Positions 2,362-57,337 of a DNA stretch of 64,000 bases are shown piece by piece. Position 1 is the first letter of the stretch; each line of letters starts with the position of its first letter. The notes beneath the pieces were generated by a model. It was not told the origin of the DNA and did not search any database. It was given only the letters and a program-made list of their open reading frames with translations. A program made the translations under genes and the position numbers. Origin of the DNA: Firmicutes bacterium CAG:822 (GTDB lineage Bacteria > Bacillota_I > Bacilli_A > RF39 > UBA660); assembly GCA_000432855.1 (NCBI GenBank), contig HF990868.1, positions 84,534-148,533 of the forward strand, written 5' to 3'.

Positions 2362-3846
2362 GTGATAAAAATGCAACAAGTAGTTACAAAAGAAGTTATG
2401 AAAAATAGTGATAAATATACAATCGAGCACAAATGCTCATCTATAGAACTTATGAATAAAGCAGCTGAAGCAGTCATGAATAGTTATCCTTTTAAAGGCA
2501 AAGTCTTAATTGTTACAGGTACTGGTAATAATGCAGGTGACGGTTATGCTTTAGCTCTTCTTCTAAATAAAGCTCATATTGAAGTTAATATTTTACAAAC
2601 GAAAGCAGAATATTCTAATGACGGAAAATACTATTATGATTTATGTCAAAAAAATAATATAAAAACTTTTTTATATAATGGCACATTTAATTTTAAAAAT
2701 TATGATGTACTAGTTGATGCTATATATGGGATTGGTTTTCATGGTGAGATGCCAGAAGAAAATTCAAATATAATCAATAGAATGAATGAAAGCCACATCC
2801 CAATTGTAAGTATTGATATAAATAGTGGTTTAGACGCTGACAACGGTCTAGCTAAGACATGCATTCATTCCACTCTTACAGTATCTATTGGAGCTTTAAA
2901 TCCAGGTCACCTTTTAAATATGGCTAAAGACAACATTGATAAATTGGTCAATCAAAACATTGGTATTGATATTGTGGATGAACATTACTATCTATTAGAA
3001 CATGAAGAATTTAAAGAATTTTTACCTAAAAGGAAAAACTTTAGTCATAAAGGTACCTATGGTTTAGTCGGAATATTGGGCGGTTCACTAAAGTATAGTG
3101 GCTCTGTTAAATTAGCTAGTCTAAGCTTATCCGCATTAACATCAGGTGCTGGTGTATCGAGATTAATTGTCCCAAATACTATAACAAAAAGCCTTCTTTT
3201 ATATGTTTTGGAAAGTACAATTTTTCCAATCGATGACGATAAAGGGCAGATGGTTTTTAATCCTAAAGAAATAGATAAAGCCTTAGAAAAAGTAACCGCT
3301 CTTTTAATCGGTATTGGATGGGATCAAAATCCAAATAATGAGAAAATATTAACATATATATTAGAGAACTATAATTTTCCAATTGTTATTGATGCCGATG
3401 GTTTAAATATTTTATCTAAAACTAAAAACATTAGACCAAATCTTATATTAACTCCTCATTTAAAAGAGTTTTCTAGACTTACTGGTATAGAAATAGACAC
3501 AATTTCCAAAGATCCTATAACTATAGCCAAAACCTATGCTAAAGAACATAAAATAATTCTTCTTTTAAAAGGACCATCCACTATTATAACTGATGGAAAC
3601 ACGGTTTATTTAATTAATACTGGTTGTAGTGGAATGGCCACTGCTGGCAGTGGTGATGTTTTATCGGGTATTTTAATTGGCCTATTAGGTTATAAAACAC
3701 CAGATATCAAAACAGTTGCCTTTGCTGCGTACATCAATGGATTGGCTGGAGAACTAGCTGAAAAGCAAAAGAGTAGTGTTAGTATGTTGGCTAGAGATAC
3801 AGCTTCATGTTTAGCTAAAGCTATCAAACCATATATTCAAAAGTAA
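2362..3846 (+). CDS. nnr: bifunctional NAD(P)H-hydrate repair enzyme (YjeF-N epimerase + YjeF-C ADP-dependent dehydratase)
   Basis: N-terminal GTGNNAGDGYALA (YjeF-N) and C-terminal GSGDVLSG carbohydrate-kinase-like motif (YjeF-C); 494 aa. Confidence 0.88.
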   Translation: MIKMQQVVTKEVMKNSDKYTIEHKCSSIELMNKAAEAVMNSYPFKGKVLIVTGTGNNAGDGYALALLLNKAHIEVNILQTKAEYSNDGKYYYDLCQKNNIKTFLYNGTFNFKNYDVLVDAIYGIGFHGEMPEENSNIINRMNESHIPIVSIDINSGLDADNGLAKTCIHSTLTVSIGALNPGHLLNMAKDNIDKLVNQNIGIDIVDEHYYLLEHEEFKEFLPKRKNFSHKGTYGLVGILGGSLKYSGSVKLASLSLSALTSGAGVSRLIVPNTITKSLLLYVLESTIFPIDDDKGQMVFNPKEIDKALEKVTALLIGIGWDQNPNNEKILTYILENYNFPIVIDADGLNILSKTKNIRPNLILTPHLKEFSRLTGIEIDTISKDPITIAKTYAKEHKIILLLKGPSTIITDGNTVYLINTGCSGMATAGSGDVLSGILIGLLGYKTPDIKTVAFAAYINGLAGELAEKQKSSVSMLARDTASCLAKAIKPYIQK

Positions 3847-3943
3847 AGCAAAACTAAGCATTTTCACTAAAATTTCACGGCATATTATTGCTTATAAAAC
3901 AATAAATATGTTATTATATTAAAGGAAAGAAGAGGTACAGAAT

Positions 3944-4798
3944 ATGAATGAAAATAAAAGAATGTTAATTTTTTTCATTTCGGTAGTTTTAGTTATAGCT
4001 GTTATCCTAGTTATAGCTTTTTGGCCACAATCTGATACAACGTTTGCCTGTGGAGTAAAAGCCGATAGTGATTATAGTAGATTAGGCAGTGTAAACTATG
4101 AACAATATAGTTGTTTAATGGAACAAGATGATAAAATTGCTCTTGTTGTTTCTGACGGTTTAAACGATGATGAAAAGAAATCGCTTAACGATGTTGCTGA
4201 AAGGATAAGTAAAAGCATTTATTATTTAAGTGATGAAGTATCTAATACAGATTTAAATAATATTAAAGATGACTTAAAAACAGATGAAGTTTCTTACGAT
4301 AACCCAAGTCTAGTCATCATTGAAAATGGAAAAGTTACTGATGGTATAGATAAAAATTTAGATAATAGTGATGATGTCTATGATTTCTTGCAAGACGCTG
4401 GTTTTGCTAAATTTGCTTGTAATGCCACAAGTGATTCCGAATACGAAAATCTTTCGAGATTGACATATGATCAATATCAATGTCTATATGATAGTGGAGA
4501 ACCATTTGTTATGATTCTTACTCAATCTACATGTAGCTATTGTGCACAGTTCTTACCAGTAATTAATGAATATGCTGGTGAAAATAATCTCCCAGTTTAC
4601 TTCTTAGAAATTGATACTATGGATTCAGATGATCTTCAATCAGTCTTTTCTTCATTAAGTTACTTTAGTGATAACTCTGATTGGGGTACACCACTTACTT
4701 TAGGAATTAAAGATAAAGAAGTTGTAACAGAACTTAGTGGTTATACTGATGATACATCATCAATCGAAAATCTATTTACTGAATTAGGATTAAAATAA
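3944..4798 (+). CDS. membrane-anchored thioredoxin-fold protein with internal tandem duplication
   Basis: N-terminal TM helix, then two ~120-aa modules both beginning FAC(G/N)..Y(E/D)QY(S/Q)CL. Only the second keeps a CSYC redox motif. Confidence 0.5.
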   Translation: MNENKRMLIFFISVVLVIAVILVIAFWPQSDTTFACGVKADSDYSRLGSVNYEQYSCLMEQDDKIALVVSDGLNDDEKKSLNDVAERISKSIYYLSDEVSNTDLNNIKDDLKTDEVSYDNPSLVIIENGKVTDGIDKNLDNSDDVYDFLQDAGFAKFACNATSDSEYENLSRLTYDQYQCLYDSGEPFVMILTQSTCSYCAQFLPVINEYAGENNLPVYFLEIDTMDSDDLQSVFSSLSYFSDNSDWGTPLTLGIKDKEVVTELSGYTDDTSSIENLFTELGLK

Positions 4799-17423: not shown

Positions 17424-17451
17424 TCATATTTATAATTTTTCCTCATATATT
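17424..17451 (+). promoter_or_regulatory. putative sigma-E-type promoter upstream of spoIVA (TCATATT -13 nt- CATATATT)
   Basis: Matches the B. subtilis sigma-E consensus kmATATT-(~14)-CATACAmT; ~24 nt upstream of the ATG at 17475. Confidence 0.35.
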
Positions 17452-17474
17452 TAAATGAAGAAAGTAGGGATAAT

Positions 17475-18761
17475 ATGGAAAAAATAGACATTATCAAAAA
17501 TATCACCGAACGAACAGGTGGAGATATTTATTTAGGAGTAGTAGGAGCCGTAAGAACTGGTAAATCAACCTTTATTAAAAGGTTTATCGAAAATCTCGTT
17601 GTTCCTAATATTGAAGATGAATATGAAAGAAAAAGAACCTTAGATGAAATTCCCCAATCAGCGCAAGGTAAAACTATCATGACTACTGAGCCCAAATTTG
17701 TTCCAAGCAATGCCGCTAAAATAAAAATTGATGATTTTACCGCTGATGTAAGATTAGTTGATTGTGTTGGATACATTATCGAAGGGGCCAAAGGTTATGA
17801 AGATGAAAATGGTCCTAGAATGGTTCACACCCCATGGTATGAAGAGTCAATACCATTTGTCGAAGCAGCTGAAATAGGCACTGAAAAAGTTATTAAAGAT
17901 CATTCGAGTATTGGGGTTTTGGTCACGACTGATGGCTCTATTGGTGAATTTGAAAGAAGTGACTATGTCGAAGCCGAACAAAGAATAGCTAAAGAACTAA
18001 AAGAAATAGGTAAACCATTTATTGTCATTGTCAATTCAACACATCCAATGTTGCCAGAAACTGAAAATTTAGCTGAAAAATTAAAAGAAGAATATGGTGC
18101 TCCTGTTATACCAATGAATATTGACAACATGAGTGAACGAGATGCTTATAATATTTTAAGAGAAGCACTATATGAATTTCCAGTCGTATGTATCGATGTT
18201 GAAATGGCCGATTGGGTCGCATGTTTAGAGCCAAATAACTGGTTAAAAAAATCATATATTGATGCCATTAGAAATAGTATTCATGAAATAGATAAACTTA
18301 GAGATATTGAACAAATAACCGGCAAATTAGAGGAATGCGAATATATTGAAAAGGCCTATCTATCAGAAGTGGATACCGCAACCGGTAATGTTAGGGTAAC
18401 CTTAAAAACACCAGCCAATCTTTACAACGAAGTATTAAAAGATATAATTGGTGTAGACATTACTAGTCGTTCCCAATTACTTAGTCTATTTCAAGATTTA
18501 GGCGAAGCCAAAAGAGAATACGACCAAGTAAAAGACGCTTTAAAGATGGTTAAGCAAACTGGTTATGGTGTTGCTTCACCAACCTTAAATGATATGACAC
18601 TAGACACTCCAGAAATAATCAAACAAGGAAGTCGTTATGGTATTAAATTGAAAGCCGTTGCTCCTTCAATTCACATAAGGAATATAATTCTGATGTTACT
18701 GTATTTGAAAGATGTCTTAATGCAAAAAGTAAGAAAAAATATGATTTCATTTACAATATAG
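17475..18761 (+). CDS. spoIVA: stage IV sporulation protein A, 5' segment (residues 1-400, then 28 element-encoded codons to a stop)
   Basis: MEKIDIIKNITERTGGDIYLGVVGAVRTGKSTFIKRF (Walker A), ..LKAVAPSIH collinear with SpoIVA. Homology ends at codon 400 (18674) and the tail IRNIILMLLY.. is unrelated. Confidence 0.85.
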   Translation: MEKIDIIKNITERTGGDIYLGVVGAVRTGKSTFIKRFIENLVVPNIEDEYERKRTLDEIPQSAQGKTIMTTEPKFVPSNAAKIKIDDFTADVRLVDCVGYIIEGAKGYEDENGPRMVHTPWYEESIPFVEAAEIGTEKVIKDHSSIGVLVTTDGSIGEFERSDYVEAEQRIAKELKEIGKPFIVIVNSTHPMLPETENLAEKLKEEYGAPVIPMNIDNMSERDAYNILREALYEFPVVCIDVEMADWVACLEPNNWLKKSYIDAIRNSIHEIDKLRDIEQITGKLEECEYIEKAYLSEVDTATGNVRVTLKTPANLYNEVLKDIIGVDITSRSQLLSLFQDLGEAKREYDQVKDALKMVKQTGYGVASPTLNDMTLDTPEIIKQGSRYGIKLKAVAPSIHIRNIILMLLYLKDVLMQKVRKNMISFTI

Positions 18762-48508: not shown

Positions 48509-49722
48509 TCACTTTCCCTTAAAGTTTTAAGTTCTAAAAGTTCTGTTACTGTTACAAATTTATATCCTTGTTTTTTTAAACTTTCAATCATATCTTCCAA
48601 AGCATTAAGTGAATAATCATGATTGTCATGCATTAAAATAATGCTGCCACTTTTTACGTTAGGTAAAACATTTTTCAAGATTTTATCTTTAGTTTTAACT
48701 TGCCAATCTCTAGAATCAACATCCCATAAAACAAATTTTAAATCAGTATAACTCTTTAAAGTATTTGTATATCCACCATAAGTTGGTCTAAATAGCGTTG
48801 GAGTAAAACCAGTAACCTTTTTAATTGCTTCCTGTGTTTTATTTAGTTCTTCTTGAAATTCTTCTTTGGATAACCTTGTTAGTAATTTATGATCGTAAGA
48901 ATGATTTCCTATCTCACTTCCTTCCTCCAGCATTCGCCTAAGCGTATCACTATAAAACTCGACCTTGTTGCCAATTAAAAAGAATGTCCCACATGCATTA
49001 TATTTTTTTAAAACATCTAAAATTTTATTTGTATATTTACTAGGACCATCGTCGAAAGTCAAAGCAACCACTTTATCATCTATAGACACATTTCTTTTTT
49101 TTATAGATAAATAAGTATCTTTACCTTCATTTATATCTATATCCACCAGCATCTTCAAACTATCCAAAGGAACATCTATGTATATTAATTCATCGTGTTT
49201 ACTCTTGATTTCTGCTGGATTAAAATAAAGGGTTAGATTTTCATCATCAATAGTAAAATAGTCATAACTGACATCGCTTAAATAATCCATATCCGCATCT
49301 TGATATTTTTCCAAGAGTTCTTTTTTTATCTCATAATCTAAGCCATTTAAATCTTCAACTAAATCTTCCATTGTTAAAAACTTATCGTTTGTTTTATTGT
49401 AAGTAAATGTCTTTATTTTATTAATAGTTTTATCAGTCACTATTTCTGTTTTTAAACTGACGTTTATAATGTCTTCATTAATTTCTTTATACGTATAAGA
49501 AATATTAAGTTCTGGTATCACTGAAGAATCCATATTTTTAAAATTATAATAAGTCTGATTCACGTAACTACTAATCGCATCATCTAAAACATTAATATTA
49601 GTCACTGGATAATTAATTGATACTAGTTCATCATTTGAACTAATATAACTTTCTACGTTTTTTTCTTTCTCACAGCCACAAAGTAATAAAACAAGTATCA
49701 CTAAAATTGTCACTTTCTTCAT
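48505..49722 (-). CDS. polysaccharide deacetylase (NodB domain) lipoprotein with N-terminal accessory domain
   Basis: Lipobox LLCGC; NodB motifs TFDDGP, HSYDH, LMHD. Confidence 0.8.
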   Translation of the reverse strand: MKKVTILVILVLLLCGCEKEKNVESYISSNDELVSINYPVTNINVLDDAISSYVNQTYYNFKNMDSSVIPELNISYTYKEINEDIINVSLKTEIVTDKTINKIKTFTYNKTNDKFLTMEDLVEDLNGLDYEIKKELLEKYQDADMDYLSDVSYDYFTIDDENLTLYFNPAEIKSKHDELIYIDVPLDSLKMLVDIDINEGKDTYLSIKKRNVSIDDKVVALTFDDGPSKYTNKILDVLKKYNACGTFFLIGNKVEFYSDTLRRMLEEGSEIGNHSYDHKLLTRLSKEEFQEELNKTQEAIKKVTGFTPTLFRPTYGGYTNTLKSYTDLKFVLWDVDSRDWQVKTKDKILKNVLPNVKSGSIILMHDNHDYSLNALEDMIESLKKQGYKFVTVTELLELKTLRESE

Positions 49723-49954
49723 CTAAATCACCCTTAAACAAGTATATGTTTTGTTTGTATTCTATATACCTAAAAAGCGAACATTTTACCTTTTATATTT
49801 ACAAATATTCACGATTTTTTTAAAAGTCAAAAATATAAAAAATAAGAAAATAGAAAAAAACCAAAAATTAAAAAGACGTATTTTTGACAAAAAATCAAAA
49901 ATAACAAAAGTGAAGAAAAAAACGCACAAACTAAACAAAAATAAGGGCAAAACC

Positions 49955-49970
49955 GTGTACTAAAGTACAC
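49955..49970. promoter_or_regulatory. palindrome GTGTACTAAAGTACAC in A-rich nrdD upstream region
   Basis: 7-bp perfect inverted arms, ~200 bp upstream of nrdD. Promoter-like TTGACT-17-TATAAT at 50114-50142. Confidence 0.3.
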
Positions 49971-50166
49971 AAAAGCACAAAAACAAAAATCAAAAAAAGT
50001 AAAAATGTAAAAATGTAAAATTTTACAAAAATTTATTTTTTGAAAAAATATTGAAAAATAAAGGCTCGCGAAATGTCTTAAAAAAAACTTCAAAAAAAAC
50101 GAACATTTCTATTGACTCTCACAATAACGCGGTATATAATCAGTGTAGAAAATATGGGAGGTACTT

Positions 50167-52464
50167 ATGACAATTGAAGAAGAAAAATTAGACTACTTAA
50201 CAGTCATCAAACGTAGTGGGAAAAAGGTTGAATGGAATGGTACTAAAATTGCCATTGCCATCAAAAAATCCTTTGATAGTCTAGAAAAGGGCGAAGAAAA
50301 AAGTTATTCAGAAAAAGACGTTAATAAAGTTTATAATGCAGTTATCAAACGCATAGAAAAAGAATATAAAAATGAAGAAAAAATTAAAATAGAAGCTATT
50401 CAAGATTTAATTGAAGCTGAACTTCAAAAACAAGGGTATCCAGATGTTTATAAAGCATTTGCTGATTACCGTGAAAGAAGAAATATTTCAAGGCAAGTTT
50501 TCTTCGGTGAAAAGAAACAACACAAATTTTTAAAAGCATTAGAAAGTTTAGGACTAAAATCATCTTACGAAGAAAATGCTAAGAGAGAAAATGCTAATGT
50601 TGACGGTGATACTGCCATGGGAACAATGCTTCAATATGGCTCAACCGTTTCTAAAGAATTTGCTAAGGCATATTTAATGAAACCAAAATTCGCTGAAGCT
50701 CACGACAATGGTGATATTCATATTCACGATATGGATTTCTTACCAATGGGTACTACAACTTGCTGCCAAATAGATATCCGTAAACTATTTAAAAATGGTT
50801 TCTCAACAGGCCATGGTTATCTAAGAGAACCAAAAGATATTATTAGTTATACCGCTTTAGCTGCTATTGCTATTCAAGCCAATCAAAATGATCAACACGG
50901 TGGCCAAGCTATTCCAGCTTTTGATTACTATATGGCTCCAGGCGTTTTGGCTACATTTAAAAAACAATTAAAACAAGCCATTTATGATTATTTAGATTTA
51001 ACTGATTTTGAATATTTCATAAATATGGATAGAGTAGCTAAAGAAATAGATAAATTAAAAACTATCGATATAGATTTAAGTATGTTTGATTCATTTACTA
51101 AAGATTCAGACCAAGTAAAAAGGTTATTCAAAAAAGCTTATGAAAAGGCTTATGAAAAAACCGATAGACAAACATATCAAGCAATGGAAGCATTTATTCA
51201 TAATTTAAATACTATGCATTCAAGAGCTGGTGCTCAAGTACCATTCTCATCAATTAACTTTGGAACAGATACGTCACCAGAAGGTAGAATGGTCATGAAA
51301 AATTATTTACTTGCTACTGATGCTGGTTTGGGAAATCATGAAACTCCAATTTTTCCAATTTCAATTTTCAAAGTAAAAGAAGGAGTTAATTATAATGAAG
51401 GAGATCCAAACTATGATTTATTTAAATTATCTTGTGAAGTTTCCGCAAAAAGATTATTTCCAAACTTTTCATTTATCGATGCTCCATTTAACTTAGAATA
51501 TTATAAACCAGACGATTACGAAACAGAAGTAGGATATATGGGTTGTCGAACTAGAGTTTTAGCTGATATAACATCAGATTATCCAGTAACTCCAGGTAGA
51601 GGTAACCTCTCATTCACATCTATTAATTTACCAAGATTAGGTATTAAACACGGAATTGTCAGCGGAGAAACTGATTTAGATGGTTTCTTTAAAGAATTAG
51701 AAGAACTAATGGAATTAGTAAAAGATCAATTACTTGAAAGATTTGAAATACAATGCTCTAAGAGAATTTATAATTTCCCATTCTTATTAGGTCAAGGAGT
51801 TTGGATGGACAGTGAAAAACTAAAACCGACAGACCGCTTAAGAAAAGTCTTAAAACATGGCACGCTTACAATTGGTTTTATCGGATTAGCCGAATGTTTA
51901 AAAGCATTAATTGGTAAACATCATGGTGAAAGTGAAGAAGCCCAAAAACTAGGACTAAAAATAATTGGATTTATGAGAAAGAAACTAGATGAATACTCTA
52001 AAGAATATAATTTAAATTTCTCATTGATTGCAACCCCAGCTGAAGGGTTATCAGGTAGATTTACCAATATTGATAAAGCTATATATGGAAAAATAAAAGG
52101 TGTAACTGACAAGGATTATTATACAAATTCATTCCATGTTCCAGTTTATTATAATATTTCAGCTGTTAAAAAAATTCAAATAGAAGCTCCATACCATGCT
52201 CTTACTAATGGTGGACATATCACTTATGTTGAGTTAGATGGTGATACCGCTATGAATGTTGATGCATTCGAAAAAATCATTAGAGTTATGCATGATAATG
52301 GTATTGGTTATGGTGCTATAAATCACCCTGTAGACCGCGACCCAGTTTGTGGATATACTGGTGTAATTGGTGATTTCTGTCCAGGATGTGGACGTAAGGA
52401 AGGCGAAGGCGTTCCAATGGAAAGAATAAAAAACGCAAGTTTAAACTCTTGCGGAGGAAGATAG
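50167..52464 (+). CDS. nrdD: anaerobic ribonucleoside-triphosphate reductase NrdD, ending at TAG before the glycyl-radical domain
   Basis: ATP cone, class III RNR core and C-terminal Zn-ribbon cysteines (..CGYTGVIGDFCPGCG..). Stop TAG 52462-64. No glycyl-radical motif inside this ORF. Confidence 0.9.
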   Translation: MTIEEEKLDYLTVIKRSGKKVEWNGTKIAIAIKKSFDSLEKGEEKSYSEKDVNKVYNAVIKRIEKEYKNEEKIKIEAIQDLIEAELQKQGYPDVYKAFADYRERRNISRQVFFGEKKQHKFLKALESLGLKSSYEENAKRENANVDGDTAMGTMLQYGSTVSKEFAKAYLMKPKFAEAHDNGDIHIHDMDFLPMGTTTCCQIDIRKLFKNGFSTGHGYLREPKDIISYTALAAIAIQANQNDQHGGQAIPAFDYYMAPGVLATFKKQLKQAIYDYLDLTDFEYFINMDRVAKEIDKLKTIDIDLSMFDSFTKDSDQVKRLFKKAYEKAYEKTDRQTYQAMEAFIHNLNTMHSRAGAQVPFSSINFGTDTSPEGRMVMKNYLLATDAGLGNHETPIFPISIFKVKEGVNYNEGDPNYDLFKLSCEVSAKRLFPNFSFIDAPFNLEYYKPDDYETEVGYMGCRTRVLADITSDYPVTPGRGNLSFTSINLPRLGIKHGIVSGETDLDGFFKELEELMELVKDQLLERFEIQCSKRIYNFPFLLGQGVWMDSEKLKPTDRLRKVLKHGTLTIGFIGLAECLKALIGKHHGESEEAQKLGLKIIGFMRKKLDEYSKEYNLNFSLIATPAEGLSGRFTNIDKAIYGKIKGVTDKDYYTNSFHVPVYYNISAVKKIQIEAPYHALTNGGHITYVELDGDTAMNVDAFEKIIRVMHDNGIGYGAINHPVDRDPVCGYTGVIGDFCPGCGRKEGEGVPMERIKNASLNSCGGR

Positions 52465-52476
52465 GAGGAAAATAAA

Positions 52477-52644
52477 ATGAAAGCAGATGAAAAAAAAGTA
52501 GGAGAAGGAGTAAAATTCGAAAGAATTAGAAGAATTACAGGTTATTTAGTAGGTACTACTGATAGATTCAATAATGCTAAAAGAGCCGAAGAACATGACC
52601 GTGTAAAACACAGTACTGCTGGACTTATGAAAGAAGCTAAATAA
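52477..52644 (+). CDS. separate glycyl-radical domain ORF (RIRRITGYLVG), same frame as nrdD, own SD and ATG
   Basis: AGGAGG (52463-68) 8 nt before ATG 52477. 55 aa with the class III RNR glycyl-radical signature; stop TAA overlaps the nrdG ATG (taATG). Confidence 0.6.
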   Translation: MKADEKKVGEGVKFERIRRITGYLVGTTDRFNNAKRAEEHDRVKHSTAGLMKEAK

Positions 52645-53195
52645 TGAAAATACGTTTAGCCAGCGACTTACAACCAGATAGTATAGTCGATGGCCCAGGA
52701 ATTAGAACCGTCGTTTGGACTCAGGGGTGTAGCCATAATTGTGAAGGATGTCACAATCCAACTACCCATGATTTTAAAGGCGGCTTTTCTGTCAGTACTG
52801 ATGAAGTGAATCAAGAGTTAGATACTCTTTTAGGTCAACAAGGCATTACCTTATCAGGTGGTGACCCAATGTTTCAAGCTAAAGCTTGTGCTGAAATAGC
52901 TAAACATGCCAAAGAAATTGGCTTAAATGTATGGTGCTATACCGGCTTTACCTATGAAGAAGTTCTTAAAAGTAAAGATATGTTAGAACTATTAAAATAC
53001 GTTGATGTTCTTGTCGATGGCAAATTTGATATCAAAGAATTTAGTTTGAACTTAGATTTTAGAGGTTCTAGAAATCAAAGAATTATTGATGTTCAAGCAA
53101 GTTTAAAAGAAAATAAAGTAATTCTAATTGATAAATACATGCATGAACGTACTCATAAAATTGAAATTCCAAGAAAGAAACATGTATATATATAA
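52644..53195 (+). CDS. nrdG: anaerobic ribonucleotide reductase activating protein (radical SAM)
   Basis: GCSHNCEGCHN (CxxxCxxC), ~180 aa, immediately downstream of nrdD. Confidence 0.9.
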   Translation: MKIRLASDLQPDSIVDGPGIRTVVWTQGCSHNCEGCHNPTTHDFKGGFSVSTDEVNQELDTLLGQQGITLSGGDPMFQAKACAEIAKHAKEIGLNVWCYTGFTYEEVLKSKDMLELLKYVDVLVDGKFDIKEFSLNLDFRGSRNQRIIDVQASLKENKVILIDKYMHERTHKIEIPRKKHVYI

Positions 53196-53203
53196 GGAGA
53201 AAT

Positions 53204-53806
53204 ATGAACAAAGAAGGATTAAGAAAATTAACCTATGGTGTATATATTATTAATACCAAAGATAGTGGTTGTGTTGTAAATACTTTGACTCAAGTTACTA
53301 ATGATAATGTAATAGTTGCTATTAATAAAGAAAATTATACCAATACAATGTTAAAAAAATATAAAAAATTTAATGCTACAGTACTTACCCAAAATACCGA
53401 TATGAAAGTCATTCAAACTTTTGGCTTTACAAGTAGTAAAGATACTGATAAATATGTAGATTTTAAAACAGAACGAGATAGTAACGGTATTAAATATCTA
53501 AAAGATCATATGGCAGCATTAATCGAATGCGAAGTGAAAAATGAAATAGATTTGGACACTCATACTATATTTATTGCTAAAGTTATAAATACAAAAAAGC
53601 TATCAGATGAAGAAGTAATGACTTACGATTATTATCATAAAGTAAAAAAAGGCGTAACACCACCAAAAGCACCAACATATGAAAAAACAAAAAAAGGATA
53701 TCGTTGCCCAATCTGTGGTTATGTTTATGAGGGTGACACTTTGCCAGATGATTTCGTATGTCCAATTTGTGGAGCTCCTGCCAGCGTTTTTGAGAAAATA
53801 GATTAA
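53204..53806 (+). CDS. flavin reductase-like domain fused to rubredoxin (high-molecular-weight rubredoxin type)
   Basis: N-terminal FMN-binding split-barrel-like region; C-terminal CPICGYVYEG...CPICGAP rubredoxin. Confidence 0.7.
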   Translation: MNKEGLRKLTYGVYIINTKDSGCVVNTLTQVTNDNVIVAINKENYTNTMLKKYKKFNATVLTQNTDMKVIQTFGFTSSKDTDKYVDFKTERDSNGIKYLKDHMAALIECEVKNEIDLDTHTIFIAKVINTKKLSDEEVMTYDYYHKVKKGVTPPKAPTYEKTKKGYRCPICGYVYEGDTLPDDFVCPICGAPASVFEKID

Positions 53807-53882
53807 ACTATTTTCTTTTTTTCGACATTTATTGACAAAGTAAAATTCCTCTGATATTCTAAAATAGAAAGTAGGGGAGAAA

Positions 53883-55097
53883 ATGAAAAAAAGTTTTAAA
53901 GTTTTATGTCTTATGTTAGTTGCTTTTATGATGTCTGGATGCATGAAATTTAACATGAATATGGATATAAATAGCGACAAAAGTATGAATTTAGAACTTA
54001 TAGTCGCATTTGCAAATGAAATGATGGGAAGTTCTAATGAAACTAATATGGATAATAGTGAAATCCAAAAACTTAAAGATAATGGATTTAATGTTGAAGA
54101 GTATTCTGATGACACTATGACTGGATATACAATTTCCACAAAGATAAATAATATTGATGATGTTAGTACTGAAAAAGATACCATGTTTAATTTAAATGAT
54201 ATTTTCAATGGTGAAAAATTATCTGATATCTTTACCGTAAAAAAAGGCTTTTTCAAAAATACTTATACAGTTAAAATTGGTGAAGAAGAATCAACTGATA
54301 TGACAAATGAACTTGAAGATGATTTAAACTCTACATATTCTAATGACTCATTATTAGCCACAGATGATGCAGATTTATCAATGCTTTTAAATAGTATGGA
54401 TATAAATTTCACAATTAATTTACCATATAAAGCTATAAGTAGTAATGCTACTAATACAGAAAACAATGGAAAAACATTAGTATGGCAACCAACATCAGCT
54501 AGCAATTCTTCTAGTAATATTGAATTTTCTTTTGAACTTTACAATATGACTAACATTTATTTAATGGTTGGAATTGTAATTCTAATTATTGTGATCATTA
54601 TTATTTTAATTGTTAAACATTGCAAAAAAACAAAATCTAATAAATCCTCATTAAACTCACACAAAAATGAGTCAACTTTAAATAATGAAACCGTAGAAAC
54701 ACATGTGACTCCAATAACTGAACCCTCAAATCCAACAAATATTCAGACAAACACAATTTCAAATTTAAATAATGAGACTCTAATCACTACACCAGTTGCC
54801 CAAGTTCAAGAGGTATCACCAGAGCCAGTAGCTACAGCTACTCCAGTTCAAGAAGTCACACCAGTAAAAACTATAGCTCCAACAGGAACTACTGTAACTC
54901 AAGTAGAACCATTCGCATCAGCTCCACAGCCTAGCACACCTGAGCCATTACAAGAAAATCAAAATACTGTGGAAAACACTAATGTTGGCGCAGAACCAAT
55001 AGTAACTGTTAATTCTGAAACTCAAAAACCAGAAAATAGTGTCAACACAGTTACTACTGACATATTTAATGCATTACCAAACGATGAAAACAAATAA
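53883..55097 (+). CDS. lipoprotein with central TM helix and Pro/Thr/Val-rich repetitive C-terminal region
   Basis: Lipobox MMSGC; TM IYLMVGIVILIIVIIIILIV; repeats ..EVSPEPVATATPVQEVTPV.. Confidence 0.5.
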   Translation: MKKSFKVLCLMLVAFMMSGCMKFNMNMDINSDKSMNLELIVAFANEMMGSSNETNMDNSEIQKLKDNGFNVEEYSDDTMTGYTISTKINNIDDVSTEKDTMFNLNDIFNGEKLSDIFTVKKGFFKNTYTVKIGEEESTDMTNELEDDLNSTYSNDSLLATDDADLSMLLNSMDINFTINLPYKAISSNATNTENNGKTLVWQPTSASNSSSNIEFSFELYNMTNIYLMVGIVILIIVIIIILIVKHCKKTKSNKSSLNSHKNESTLNNETVETHVTPITEPSNPTNIQTNTISNLNNETLITTPVAQVQEVSPEPVATATPVQEVTPVKTIAPTGTTVTQVEPFASAPQPSTPEPLQENQNTVENTNVGAEPIVTVNSETQKPENSVNTVTTDIFNALPNDENK

Positions 55098-56540: not shown

Positions 56541-56575
56541 TAATTATTAATTATATATTTTGAATATATTTAAAT

Positions 56576-57337
56576 ATGAATAGAATTCACTTAAAAAGAA
56601 AATTTAAATTATCAAAAATAAAGCCAATTAATTTAATTGCTATTTTTATTGTGGCCATTTTAGTTGGAATATATTTTATTTTTGGATATATAAAAGAAAG
56701 AATTATGCCATCAATTTTTAAATATGGAGCCCTAGAAGCAAAAAAGTTTTCAAGTATTATTGTCAATGATGCAATTGATAAATATATAACAGAAAAAGTT
56801 GAGGTGGATAATCTATTTATAGTTTCCACCAATTCAGAAGGAGAAATTACCTCCATTGATTTTAATACAGCATTAATAAATCAATATTTGACAGACACTA
56901 CTAAAAGTATCCAAAAAAACTTAAAATACATAGAAAATGGTGATATTCAAAAAGTTGAATATCAAGCTGATTTATTAGAAAACTATGATAAAGATGCTTT
57001 AAAAAACGGGGTTATTTATTACTTAAATAGTGGTTTTATATTTAATAATCCAATATTTTCAAACTTTGGTGCCCAAATTCCTATAAAAATATCATTAACC
57101 GGTGATGTCATTACCAATATAGCAACTGAAGTTACTAATTATGGAATTAATAATGCTTTAATTAAAGTATATGTTAATATTGAAATTACCGAGCAAGTTA
57201 TACTTCCATATTATGATAAAGAAATAAAAATTGAAAATAAAGTTCCAATTGCTTTAAAACTAGTAACCGGAACCGTTCCAAGTTACTATGGCAATCTAAA
57301 CACCGCAACCCCATCTTTAACTCTGCCAAATAGCTAA
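56576..57337 (+). CDS. yunB: sporulation protein YunB-like
   Basis: N-terminal TM; IPIKISLTGDVITNIATEVTNYGINNALIKVYVNIEI..KVPIALKLVTGTVP matches the YunB family core. Confidence 0.6.
   Translation: MNRIHLKRKFKLSKIKPINLIAIFIVAILVGIYFIFGYIKERIMPSIFKYGALEAKKFSSIIVNDAIDKYITEKVEVDNLFIVSTNSEGEITSIDFNTALINQYLTDTTKSIQKNLKYIENGDIQKVEYQADLLENYDKDALKNGVIYYLNSGFIFNNPIFSNFGAQIPIKISLTGDVITNIATEVTNYGINNALIKVYVNIEITEQVILPYYDKEIKIENKVPIALKLVTGTVPSYYGNLNTATPSLTLPNS

Follow-up and report, generated by a model that had tools for sequence, protein, structure and literature searches.

A predicted two-gene form of class III ribonucleotide reductase with its glycyl-radical loop on a separate small protein

In published descriptions, glycyl-radical enzymes consist of one chain whose radical domain is C-terminal; the GrcA/YfiD spare parts for pyruvate formate-lyase (PFL) are the only known exceptions (PMC13450708). 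A stretch of 64,000 nucleotides (nt) of contig HF990868.1 from Firmicutes bacterium CAG:822 (hereafter the window, whose GC content is 27.8%) raises the question of whether the same rule holds for NrdD, the class III ribonucleotide reductase (RNR). The nrdD gene of the window ends at a TAG codon, and the glycyl-radical motif is encoded in a short open reading frame (ORF) situated between nrdD and the activase gene nrdG. An initial annotation of this DNA offered two readings of the locus: either the catalytic subunit and the radical-bearing domain are made as two translationally coupled polypeptides, the second being an autonomous module of the GrcA kind, or the TAG is read through or stems from a recent nonsense mutation. 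On the sequence comparisons reported here, it is very probable that the window encodes a class III RNR whose catalytic polypeptide is naturally divided into two genes of one operon (nrdD-core, small ORF, nrdG), with the radical peptide acting in trans.

All genes and sites of the locus lie on the + strand. The large ORF (50167..52464) encodes a core subunit of 765 amino acids (aa) comprising an ATP-cone, an alpha/beta barrel, a Zn ribbon and a 20-residue tail, and is 100% identical to the NrdD of Firmicutes bacterium CAG:822. It lacks a glycyl-radical loop and ends with ...SLNSCGGR followed by TAG (52462..52464). This stop codon is overlapped by a Shine-Dalgarno (SD) sequence, AGGAGG (52463..52468), located 8 nt before the ATG of the small ORF (52477..52644). 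The ATG is in the nrdD frame, 12 nt past the stop and 15 nt from the first base of TAG. The product of the small ORF, MKADEKKVGEGVKFERIRRITGYLVGTTDRFNNAKRAEEHDRVKHSTAGLMKEAK, consists of 55 aa forming a variable leader, the radical loop, and a C-terminal helix and tail; it corresponds to GenBank entry CCY47106.1, annotated as 'putative uncharacterized protein [Firmicutes bacterium CAG:822]'. Its TAA (52642-52644) and the ATG of nrdG (52644..53195) have one base in common, in the sequence TAATG. The product of nrdG is recognized as a radical S-adenosylmethionine activase by TIGR02491 (161.5 bits, cutoff 126.1) and PF13353. The initial annotation had described this junction, and the absence of the radical glycine from the annotated NrdD, correctly; it was mistaken only in placing the stop right after the Zn-ribbon cysteines, since 23 codons separate it from the last of them, C741. 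Translation of the small ORF is probably coupled, because its SD overlaps the upstream stop and its own stop overlaps the nrdG start. Upstream of nrdD, a promoter-like site, TTGACT-17-TATAAT (50112..50140), matches the consensus at 11 of 12 positions, the best match in the region, although such a match does not imply function. No terminator-like sites were found on the plus strand inside the operon.

Both ORFs were assigned by comparison with profile hidden Markov models (HMMs). The large ORF matched PRK07111 with 1037 bits (cutoff 764) over model positions 3-714 of 746, TIGR02487 with 592 bits (cutoff 326), and positions 1-532 of the 562 of PF13597 with its aa 141-746 (E = 2e-193), aa 12-106 being an ATP-cone (PF03477). 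The small ORF aligned to positions 532-562 of 562 of PF13597 (E = 5e-8, above the gathering score) and to positions 710-744 of 746 of PRK07111 (E = 1e-12). Matching as it does the last ~35 positions of NrdD models, it is to be regarded as more than a chance ORF, and its alignment bears out the class III glycyl-radical signature ascribed to it. The features by which an NrdD is recognized were found here as a family HMM match over the barrel core, an MGCR finger loop and a nearby NrdG, but the RxxGY loop was not on the same chain: the large ORF stops at model position 714 of 746, and RRITGY stands on the next ORF. The finger-loop motif MGCRTR (aa 458-463; 51538..51555) aligns to MGCRTRV of the Prevotella copri NrdD and contains the presumed thiyl-radical cysteine, C460. 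MGCR denotes the single-cysteine subclass, tied to formate-dependent reduction (PMC9669993). No dedicated model for the mini-protein was found in PHROG, Pfam or NCBIfam.

The position of the cut was located on the closest solved structure, that of the fused P. copri NrdD (8P23). The large ORF aligned to residues 8-705 of this protein (E = 5e-183), ending at CPKCGSH, and the small ORF to residues 707-738, IDKLQRITGYLVGTTDRWN..., which include the radical site of that enzyme, Gly711. The glycyl-radical domain of P. copri NrdD has been delimited to residues 676-739, which hold the Zn site, the buried loop of Gly711 and a tail crossing the top of the barrel; the domain is mobile and leaves the barrel as a rigid body (PMC11226230). 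Considering these published limits together with the ends of both alignments, the cut is predicted to fall inside the glycyl-radical domain, between residues 705 and 707 of 8P23, so that the core keeps the Zn ribbon while loop and tail become a peptide. The family models likewise place the split at the junction of Zn ribbon and Gly loop (large ORF, PRK07111 3-714; small ORF, 710-744), where the initial annotation had expected it.

The Zn-ribbon segment retained by the large subunit (VCGYTGVIGDFCPGCG, aa 727-742; 52345..52392) aligns to CGY...CPKCG of 8P23 and is kept in all split and fused relatives. It holds three cysteines (C728, C738 and C741), the first CxxC position being occupied by Asp (DPVC). 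The canonical CxxC...CxxC Zn site thus has Asp for its first Cys (DRDPVCGY, versus NRCLDCGY in P. copri), and three Cys ligands are left. The same Asp is common to the fused relatives (L057-L089); present in split and fused proteins alike, it characterizes the subfamily as a whole, not the split forms. The Cys of ...NSCGGR belongs to the clade-specific tail and not to the Zn ribbon.

The arrangement was found to extend far beyond the window. The 55-aa sequence occurs unchanged in 432 indexed blocks of an assembly collection, and in the 23 contigs read (9 places shown) the gene order was the same: polysaccharide deacetylase, NrdD of 765/766 aa, 55-aa ORF, NrdG and flavin reductase. When the 55-aa sequence was used as query against 5.8 billion proteins, the best 120 matches (90% clusters) all had 49-77 aa. 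Searched exhaustively with HMMER, a set of 1.84 billion representatives at 50% identity yielded 2091 matches at E <= 1e-3, the best 150 of which all had 51-124 aa. For the large subunit, the 120 homologues listed were all at least 92% identical. Reference genomes, one per species, were scanned using an alignment of small ORFs as query; at least 596 stretches were confirmed, and the best 80 were kept. Among these 80 loci and the window itself, 67 were split like the window, 6 had a fused nrdD, and 8 carried the small ORF with no nrdD nearby.

Comparison of the 67 split loci showed which elements of the junction are constant and which are not. The large ORF terminates with TAA in 44 of them, with TAG in 16 and with TGA in 7; the frame of the small ORF relative to nrdD is 0, +1 or +2 in 24, 22 and 21 loci, respectively; and the spacer between the ORFs ranges from -1 to 216 nt, the longer ones holding further stops. 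The small ORF has 51-75 aa in these loci (family median, 59 aa), begins with ATG in 66 and is preceded by an SD-like motif in 64. The junction differs even in the nearest relatives, those that have the ...NSCGGR tail in common with the window: TAA replaces TAG in L014 and L011, and the small ORF is in frame +1 in L012 and in frame +2 in L021 and L023. Alignment of orthologues thus upheld one part of what the initial annotation had proposed to look for, the split with its own SD and ATG, but not the TAG itself. GC content varies over 27-62% among the loci, some of which come from cultured isolates (Acutalibacter caecimuris, Oscillospiraceae bacterium 42-9 and Bacterium 1XD42-1) and others from Desulfovibrio-type, Anaerobiospirillum and Treponemataceae assemblies. 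Taxon labels of metagenome-assembled genomes (MAGs) are imperfect, and a few low-GC loci that bear the labels Muribaculaceae or Rickettsiales probably represent mis-binned Bacilli. In two MAG loci (L036:2870-3957 and L079:1926-3969) the large ORF is further broken into two or three frames, which could be due to assembly error or to genuine decay. Taken together, these comparisons indicate that the feature of the window is a member of a large, widespread two-gene form of class III RNR and not the oddity of one genome.

Selection was assessed on 36 core codons of the small ORF (EGVxFERIRRITGY...RVKH) in 81 sequences. The mean proportion of nonsynonymous differences (pN) was 0.13 and that of synonymous differences (pS) was 0.88, a pN/pS of about 0.15, and the median dN/dS for unsaturated pairs was 0.13; between the window and L010, pS was 0.66 and pN was 0.012. 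The core of the small ORF is under purifying selection. Twenty columns were invariant among 76 homologues, including G22, Y23, R18 and R19, and the N-terminal leader and C-terminal tail of the small subunit varied freely in sequence and length.

Against this background the alternatives can be weighed. Read-through or recoding of the TAG, by a suppressor tRNA, pyrrolysine insertion or another programmed event, would yield one fused NrdD; it would suit the in-frame position of the small ORF in the window, just 12 nt past the stop, and the use of TAG as the pyrrolysine codon in some anaerobes. However, all three stop codons are used in the window and TAG closes 11 of its 52 long ORFs, so that it is an ordinary terminator and the standard code applies; the only tRNAs found in the window were tRNA-Ala. 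Since stops, frames and spacers vary even among the nearest relatives, with the three frames about equally common, the comparison excludes read-through, pyrrolysine, frameshifting and any other single recoding mechanism, as well as recent mutation. The SD and ATG that the small ORF nearly always carries also speak against recoding, which as a general mechanism is effectively refuted by these data and for this TAG is very improbable. An alternative genetic code with TAG reassigned was also considered and ruled out, given that all three stops end long ORFs of the window and that relatives vary in stop and frame. A recent nonsense mutation, a decaying pseudogene or an error of sequencing or assembly is the usual cause of a premature stop in an essential-looking enzyme, and the additional frame breaks of the two MAG loci could be cited in its favour. 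Yet the identical arrangement recurs in hundreds of independent assemblies and is kept in lineages of widely different GC, cultured isolates included; the downstream ORF is under strong purifying selection, its SD and ATG are conserved, and the tails of the large subunit are conserved within clades. This explanation retains scarcely any probability. Of the two readings initially put forward, the second is thus refuted by the TAA of relatives, the other frames and the mixed stops, and the first, two coupled polypeptides with an autonomous GrcA-like module, is strongly supported by conservation, selection and gene structure over dozens of species.

Two further explanations accept the two ORFs as genuine. 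The halves might be joined after translation, by a split intein or protein ligation, or through an intron-like RNA element, a thought encouraged by phage nrdD genes that harbor group I introns and inteins (PMC3653736). But the ORFs are separated by 12 nt, and intein halves would need far more room than the tail (11-20 aa) and leader (~10 aa) afford; no ORF lies between the halves; no Rfam family, group I and II introns and riboswitches included, matched at E <= 1 across 49500-54000; and tails and leaders are wholly different between clades. Joining of the halves is accordingly given almost no credence. The mini-protein could instead serve chiefly a separate, fused NrdD from another part of the genome, as its spare part or regulator, just as GrcA serves PFL; the tail-bearing large ORF would then be independent of it. 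Orphan copies away from nrdD, present in 8 of 80 genomic and 74 of 80 viral loci, fit this proposal, as they indicate that the peptide is useful without an adjacent core gene. Nevertheless, in the window and in 67 reference loci the large ORF beside the small ORF has no Gly loop, so that no known class III mechanism would let it act on its own, the overlap of stop and start with nrdG suggests co-expression in stoichiometric amounts, and no second nrdD was present among the ten largest ORFs of the window. A role chiefly as spare part is therefore unlikely. Membership of the GrcA/YfiD family (IPR011140; PF01228) was tested and rejected: a Pfam scan of the 55-aa ORF gave only PF13597, and hhalign of the family alignment against E. 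coli GrcA gave a probability of 2%.

The preferred reading, a class III RNR divided between two genes, rests on two separately initiated, co-oriented and tightly packed ORFs under selection, one bearing the catalytic hallmarks and the other the radical motif, and on the adjoining activase gene. The core subunit carries the ATP-cone, the Zn ribbon and a barrel of ten strands that includes the finger-loop cysteine (MGCR), and the 55-aa subunit, translated from its own SD and ATG, would supply the Gly22 loop and the C-terminal segment that in fused enzymes crosses the barrel top. NrdG would abstract hydrogen from Gly22, installing the radical on the free or loosely bound peptide, which would then slot its Gly loop non-covalently into the barrel beside C460, with its C-terminal helix over the barrel; catalysis would proceed thereafter as in fused NrdD. 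Oxygen destroys enzymes of this kind through chain cleavage at the glycine. With a detachable radical carrier of 6 kDa, such damage would thus call for replacement of the peptide alone.

Some points temper this reading. AlphaFold 2 modelling of the small peptide alone, with 76 homologues, gave a predicted local distance difference test score of 56.6 and no confident fold. The GEGVxxE segment is present on both halves of the proposed two-chain enzyme. The advantage in oxygen repair is drawn purely by analogy with GrcA/YfiD and PFL. No fused nrdD or RNR of another class was found among the ten largest ORFs of the 64-kb window, to which that search was confined.

The repeated segment bears on the origin of the two-gene form. 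Fused relatives read CPGCGRTEADGVPFERIRRITGYLVG across the junction region. The large subunits of split loci are colinear with them through CPxCGR-x-GEGVxxE and continue into clade-specific tails, which measure 17-51 residues counted after CPxCGR and are of three types: ...ERIKNASLNSCGGR in Bacilli, EKLRELRKKYPNMPHFVGIE in Clostridia and Desulfovibrio, and a third, longer one. In the window, the tail KNASLNSCGGR (52429..52461), conserved within the Bacilli clade, occupies in the alignment the place of RRITGY... of the fused proteins. Every small ORF restarts with xGEGVxFERIRRITGY, so that a short segment is present twice. The first copy in the window, GEGVPMERI (aa 746-754; 52402..52428), is colinear with GV.FERI of the fused relatives and is identical at 19 of 27 nt to the second copy, GEGVKFERI (52501..52527), which lies in the small ORF and is followed by the radical loop RRITGYLVG (52528..52554), with Gly22 encoded by GGT at 52540-52542. 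This pattern resembles the outcome of an ancient tandem duplication of the C-terminal region, with subsequent loss of the radical loop from the first copy. In a neighbour-joining tree of large subunits, calculated without support values and from a sample biased to small-ORF matches, the fused NrdDs (L057, L059, L077, L080, L082 and L089) fell among the split ones, a distribution that would fit either re-fusion by recombination between the repeats or several independent splits. Precise re-fusion could be mediated by recombination of the duplicated GEGVxxE segments, which flank the tail, spacer and leader.

Cysteines recur at the ends of both subunits. At least two are present within the last 10 residues in 22 of 62 split large subunits from the window and L010-L089 (...CCGR, ...CDC, ...CCK, ...HCDC), and a Cys pair follows RVKH in 23 of 257 small subunits. 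A free C-terminal Cys pair resembles the redox-shuttle tails of class I and II RNRs.

Viral sequences were surveyed by scanning IMG/VR in the same way, which yielded 552 confirmed stretches, and the best 80 viral loci (L090-L169) were examined. In 74 of them the mini-gene stood alone, with neither nrdD nor nrdG within 4 kb. Viral mini-genes encode about 40-75 aa and have an SD and ATG (for example L110:4001-4126, L136:4001-4117 and L099:4001-4135). In three viral loci the neighbours encode endolysin, serine integrase, terminase small subunit, Holliday-junction resolvase, exonuclease, replication initiator, DNA methyltransferase and HicB. The protein of an orphan copy in Bilophila wadsworthia ATCC 49260 (L078:4001-4117) is identical to that of the viral locus L136, and the gene is flanked in these loci by those for a DNA methyltransferase, a replication initiator and HicB; given the identical protein on viral L136, the Bilophila orphan is probably prophage-borne. 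A longer variant, of about 90-160 aa, carries an extra N-terminal region of 60-110 aa ahead of FERIRRITGY (L038:~3800-4120, L063:~3850-4120 and L102:~3650-4130). This region had no Pfam match in the three proteins, no nrdD lay near their genes, and their layout, an N-terminal region followed by a radical domain, recalls that of GrcA. Among deposited phage records, only nine unannotated faecal 'Bacteriophage sp.' fragments contained the mini-protein. The occurrence of phage contigs with the mini-gene alone suggests that the peptide works in trans on the core subunit of the host, and the orphan phage mini-gene may provide a radical subunit for the host RNR, by analogy with T4 Y06I for PFL. For the broader proposition that across much of the anaerobic microbiota class III RNRs are true two-component enzymes with an exchangeable, consumable radical subunit, and that phages bring their own ~6-kDa carrier for the host core so as to sustain synthesis of deoxynucleoside triphosphates in infection, we consider the chances to be even.

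Other features of the window were recorded. The last gene of the apparent operon (53204..53806) encodes a flavin-reductase/rubredoxin fusion (PF01613 and PF21349); it begins 8 nt past nrdG, with AAGGAG ahead of it, and its product may serve as electron donor for NrdG activation. It adjoins nrdG only in the window's own species (L001-L009); a role as conserved partner was ruled out, as the gene was not beside nrdG in the split locus of any other species. Between 21178 and 27197, a gene for a KAP-family P-loop NTPase (663 aa) lies close to one for a large serine recombinase (557 aa), and the two may be part of an integrated mobile element. SpoIVA is encoded in the window, and the matching contigs L001-L009 have a gene call for a YunB-like sporulation protein (window positions 17436-18761 and 56564-57337); on this basis the source organism appears to be a spore-forming Firmicute. 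The contigs that carry these proteins reach 1.3-1.5 Mb, which suggests a small genome.

A review of June 2026 lists spare-part proteins for formate-lyases only (PMC13450708), although earlier work had speculated that other such spare parts might exist (PMC8683613). No description of an NrdD split at the Gly loop was found in the full-text literature searched, which does not cover subscription-only papers, and a two-gene class III RNR with a phage-borne stand-alone version is apparently undescribed. Annotation practice works against its recognition: the large subunits pass all NrdD cutoffs despite the missing radical site, and the small ORFs are labelled 'uncharacterized' or taken as fragments and are lost to the length filters of RNR surveys, a large RNR phylogeny having dropped sequences of < 400 aa (PMC9531940). 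If the proposal is correct, the mini-protein would be the first 'autonomous glycyl-radical cofactor' outside the formate-lyases, the two-gene enzyme would be the class III counterpart of the class I alpha/beta division of labour, and the phage-borne copies would constitute a new kind of auxiliary metabolic gene. A naturally split NrdD would provide a ready-made system for studying the access of an activase to a glycine buried in the active enzyme, because the substrate would be a free peptide. It would allow a direct test of the repair of an oxygen-damaged RNR by subunit exchange, and would offer an explanation of how strict gut anaerobes might tolerate transient oxygen.

The system is most directly compared with canonical fused class III NrdD and its NrdG, as in P. 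copri (8P23), phage T4 (1H7A) and E. coli. The protein family, the ATP-cone, the barrel, the MGCR motif, the Zn ribbon, the RxxGY loop and the adjacent NrdG are the same. The differences are that here the radical loop and the C-terminal segment are on a separate chain of 55 aa, and that a clade-specific tail, preceded by a duplicated GEGVxxE segment, closes the large chain. Interrupted nrdD genes are known from phages, where group I introns, inteins or homing endonucleases split them (the T4 I-TevII intron, Lactococcus phage 949 and Aeromonas phage phiAS4; PMC3653736). These resemble the window in that nrdD is encoded in more than one piece, but their interruptions reflect mobile elements or decay, lie at other positions, and are spliced or not conserved, whereas here no element is present and the two-ORF layout is conserved under selection.

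In function, the closest likeness would be to GrcA/YfiD of E. coli and Y06I of T4, autonomous radical domains that restore a glycyl-radical enzyme, PFL (PMC8683613). Like the mini-protein, these are small stand-alone proteins with a glycyl-radical loop, and a phage version exists in both cases; both kinds are presumed to receive their radical from the cognate radical-SAM activase and to complete a barrel devoid of a functional radical domain. By contrast, GrcA has no sequence relationship with the NrdD-derived mini-protein, its partner is PFL and not NrdD, and it has 127 aa versus 55 here, most mini-proteins lacking its long N-terminal region. Moreover, GrcA is a back-up, whereas the core adjacent to the mini-gene has no Gly loop of its own to lose; as this partner never had such a loop, the peptide would be an obligate subunit. 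Within RNRs the nearest precedent is the split class II enzyme NrdJa/NrdJb of Pseudomonas aeruginosa (PMC4520616), also a functional catalytic chain made as two polypeptides from adjacent genes; it differs in its class, its B12 cofactor, the position of the cut and its large C-terminal piece, which bears no radical. A conceptual likeness may finally be drawn to class I, in which the barrel of NrdA receives its radical from a separate radical-storing subunit, NrdB. NrdB, however, is a ferritin-like metalloprotein acting by long-range radical transfer, whereas in the two-gene class III RNR the radical residue itself would enter the active site directly.

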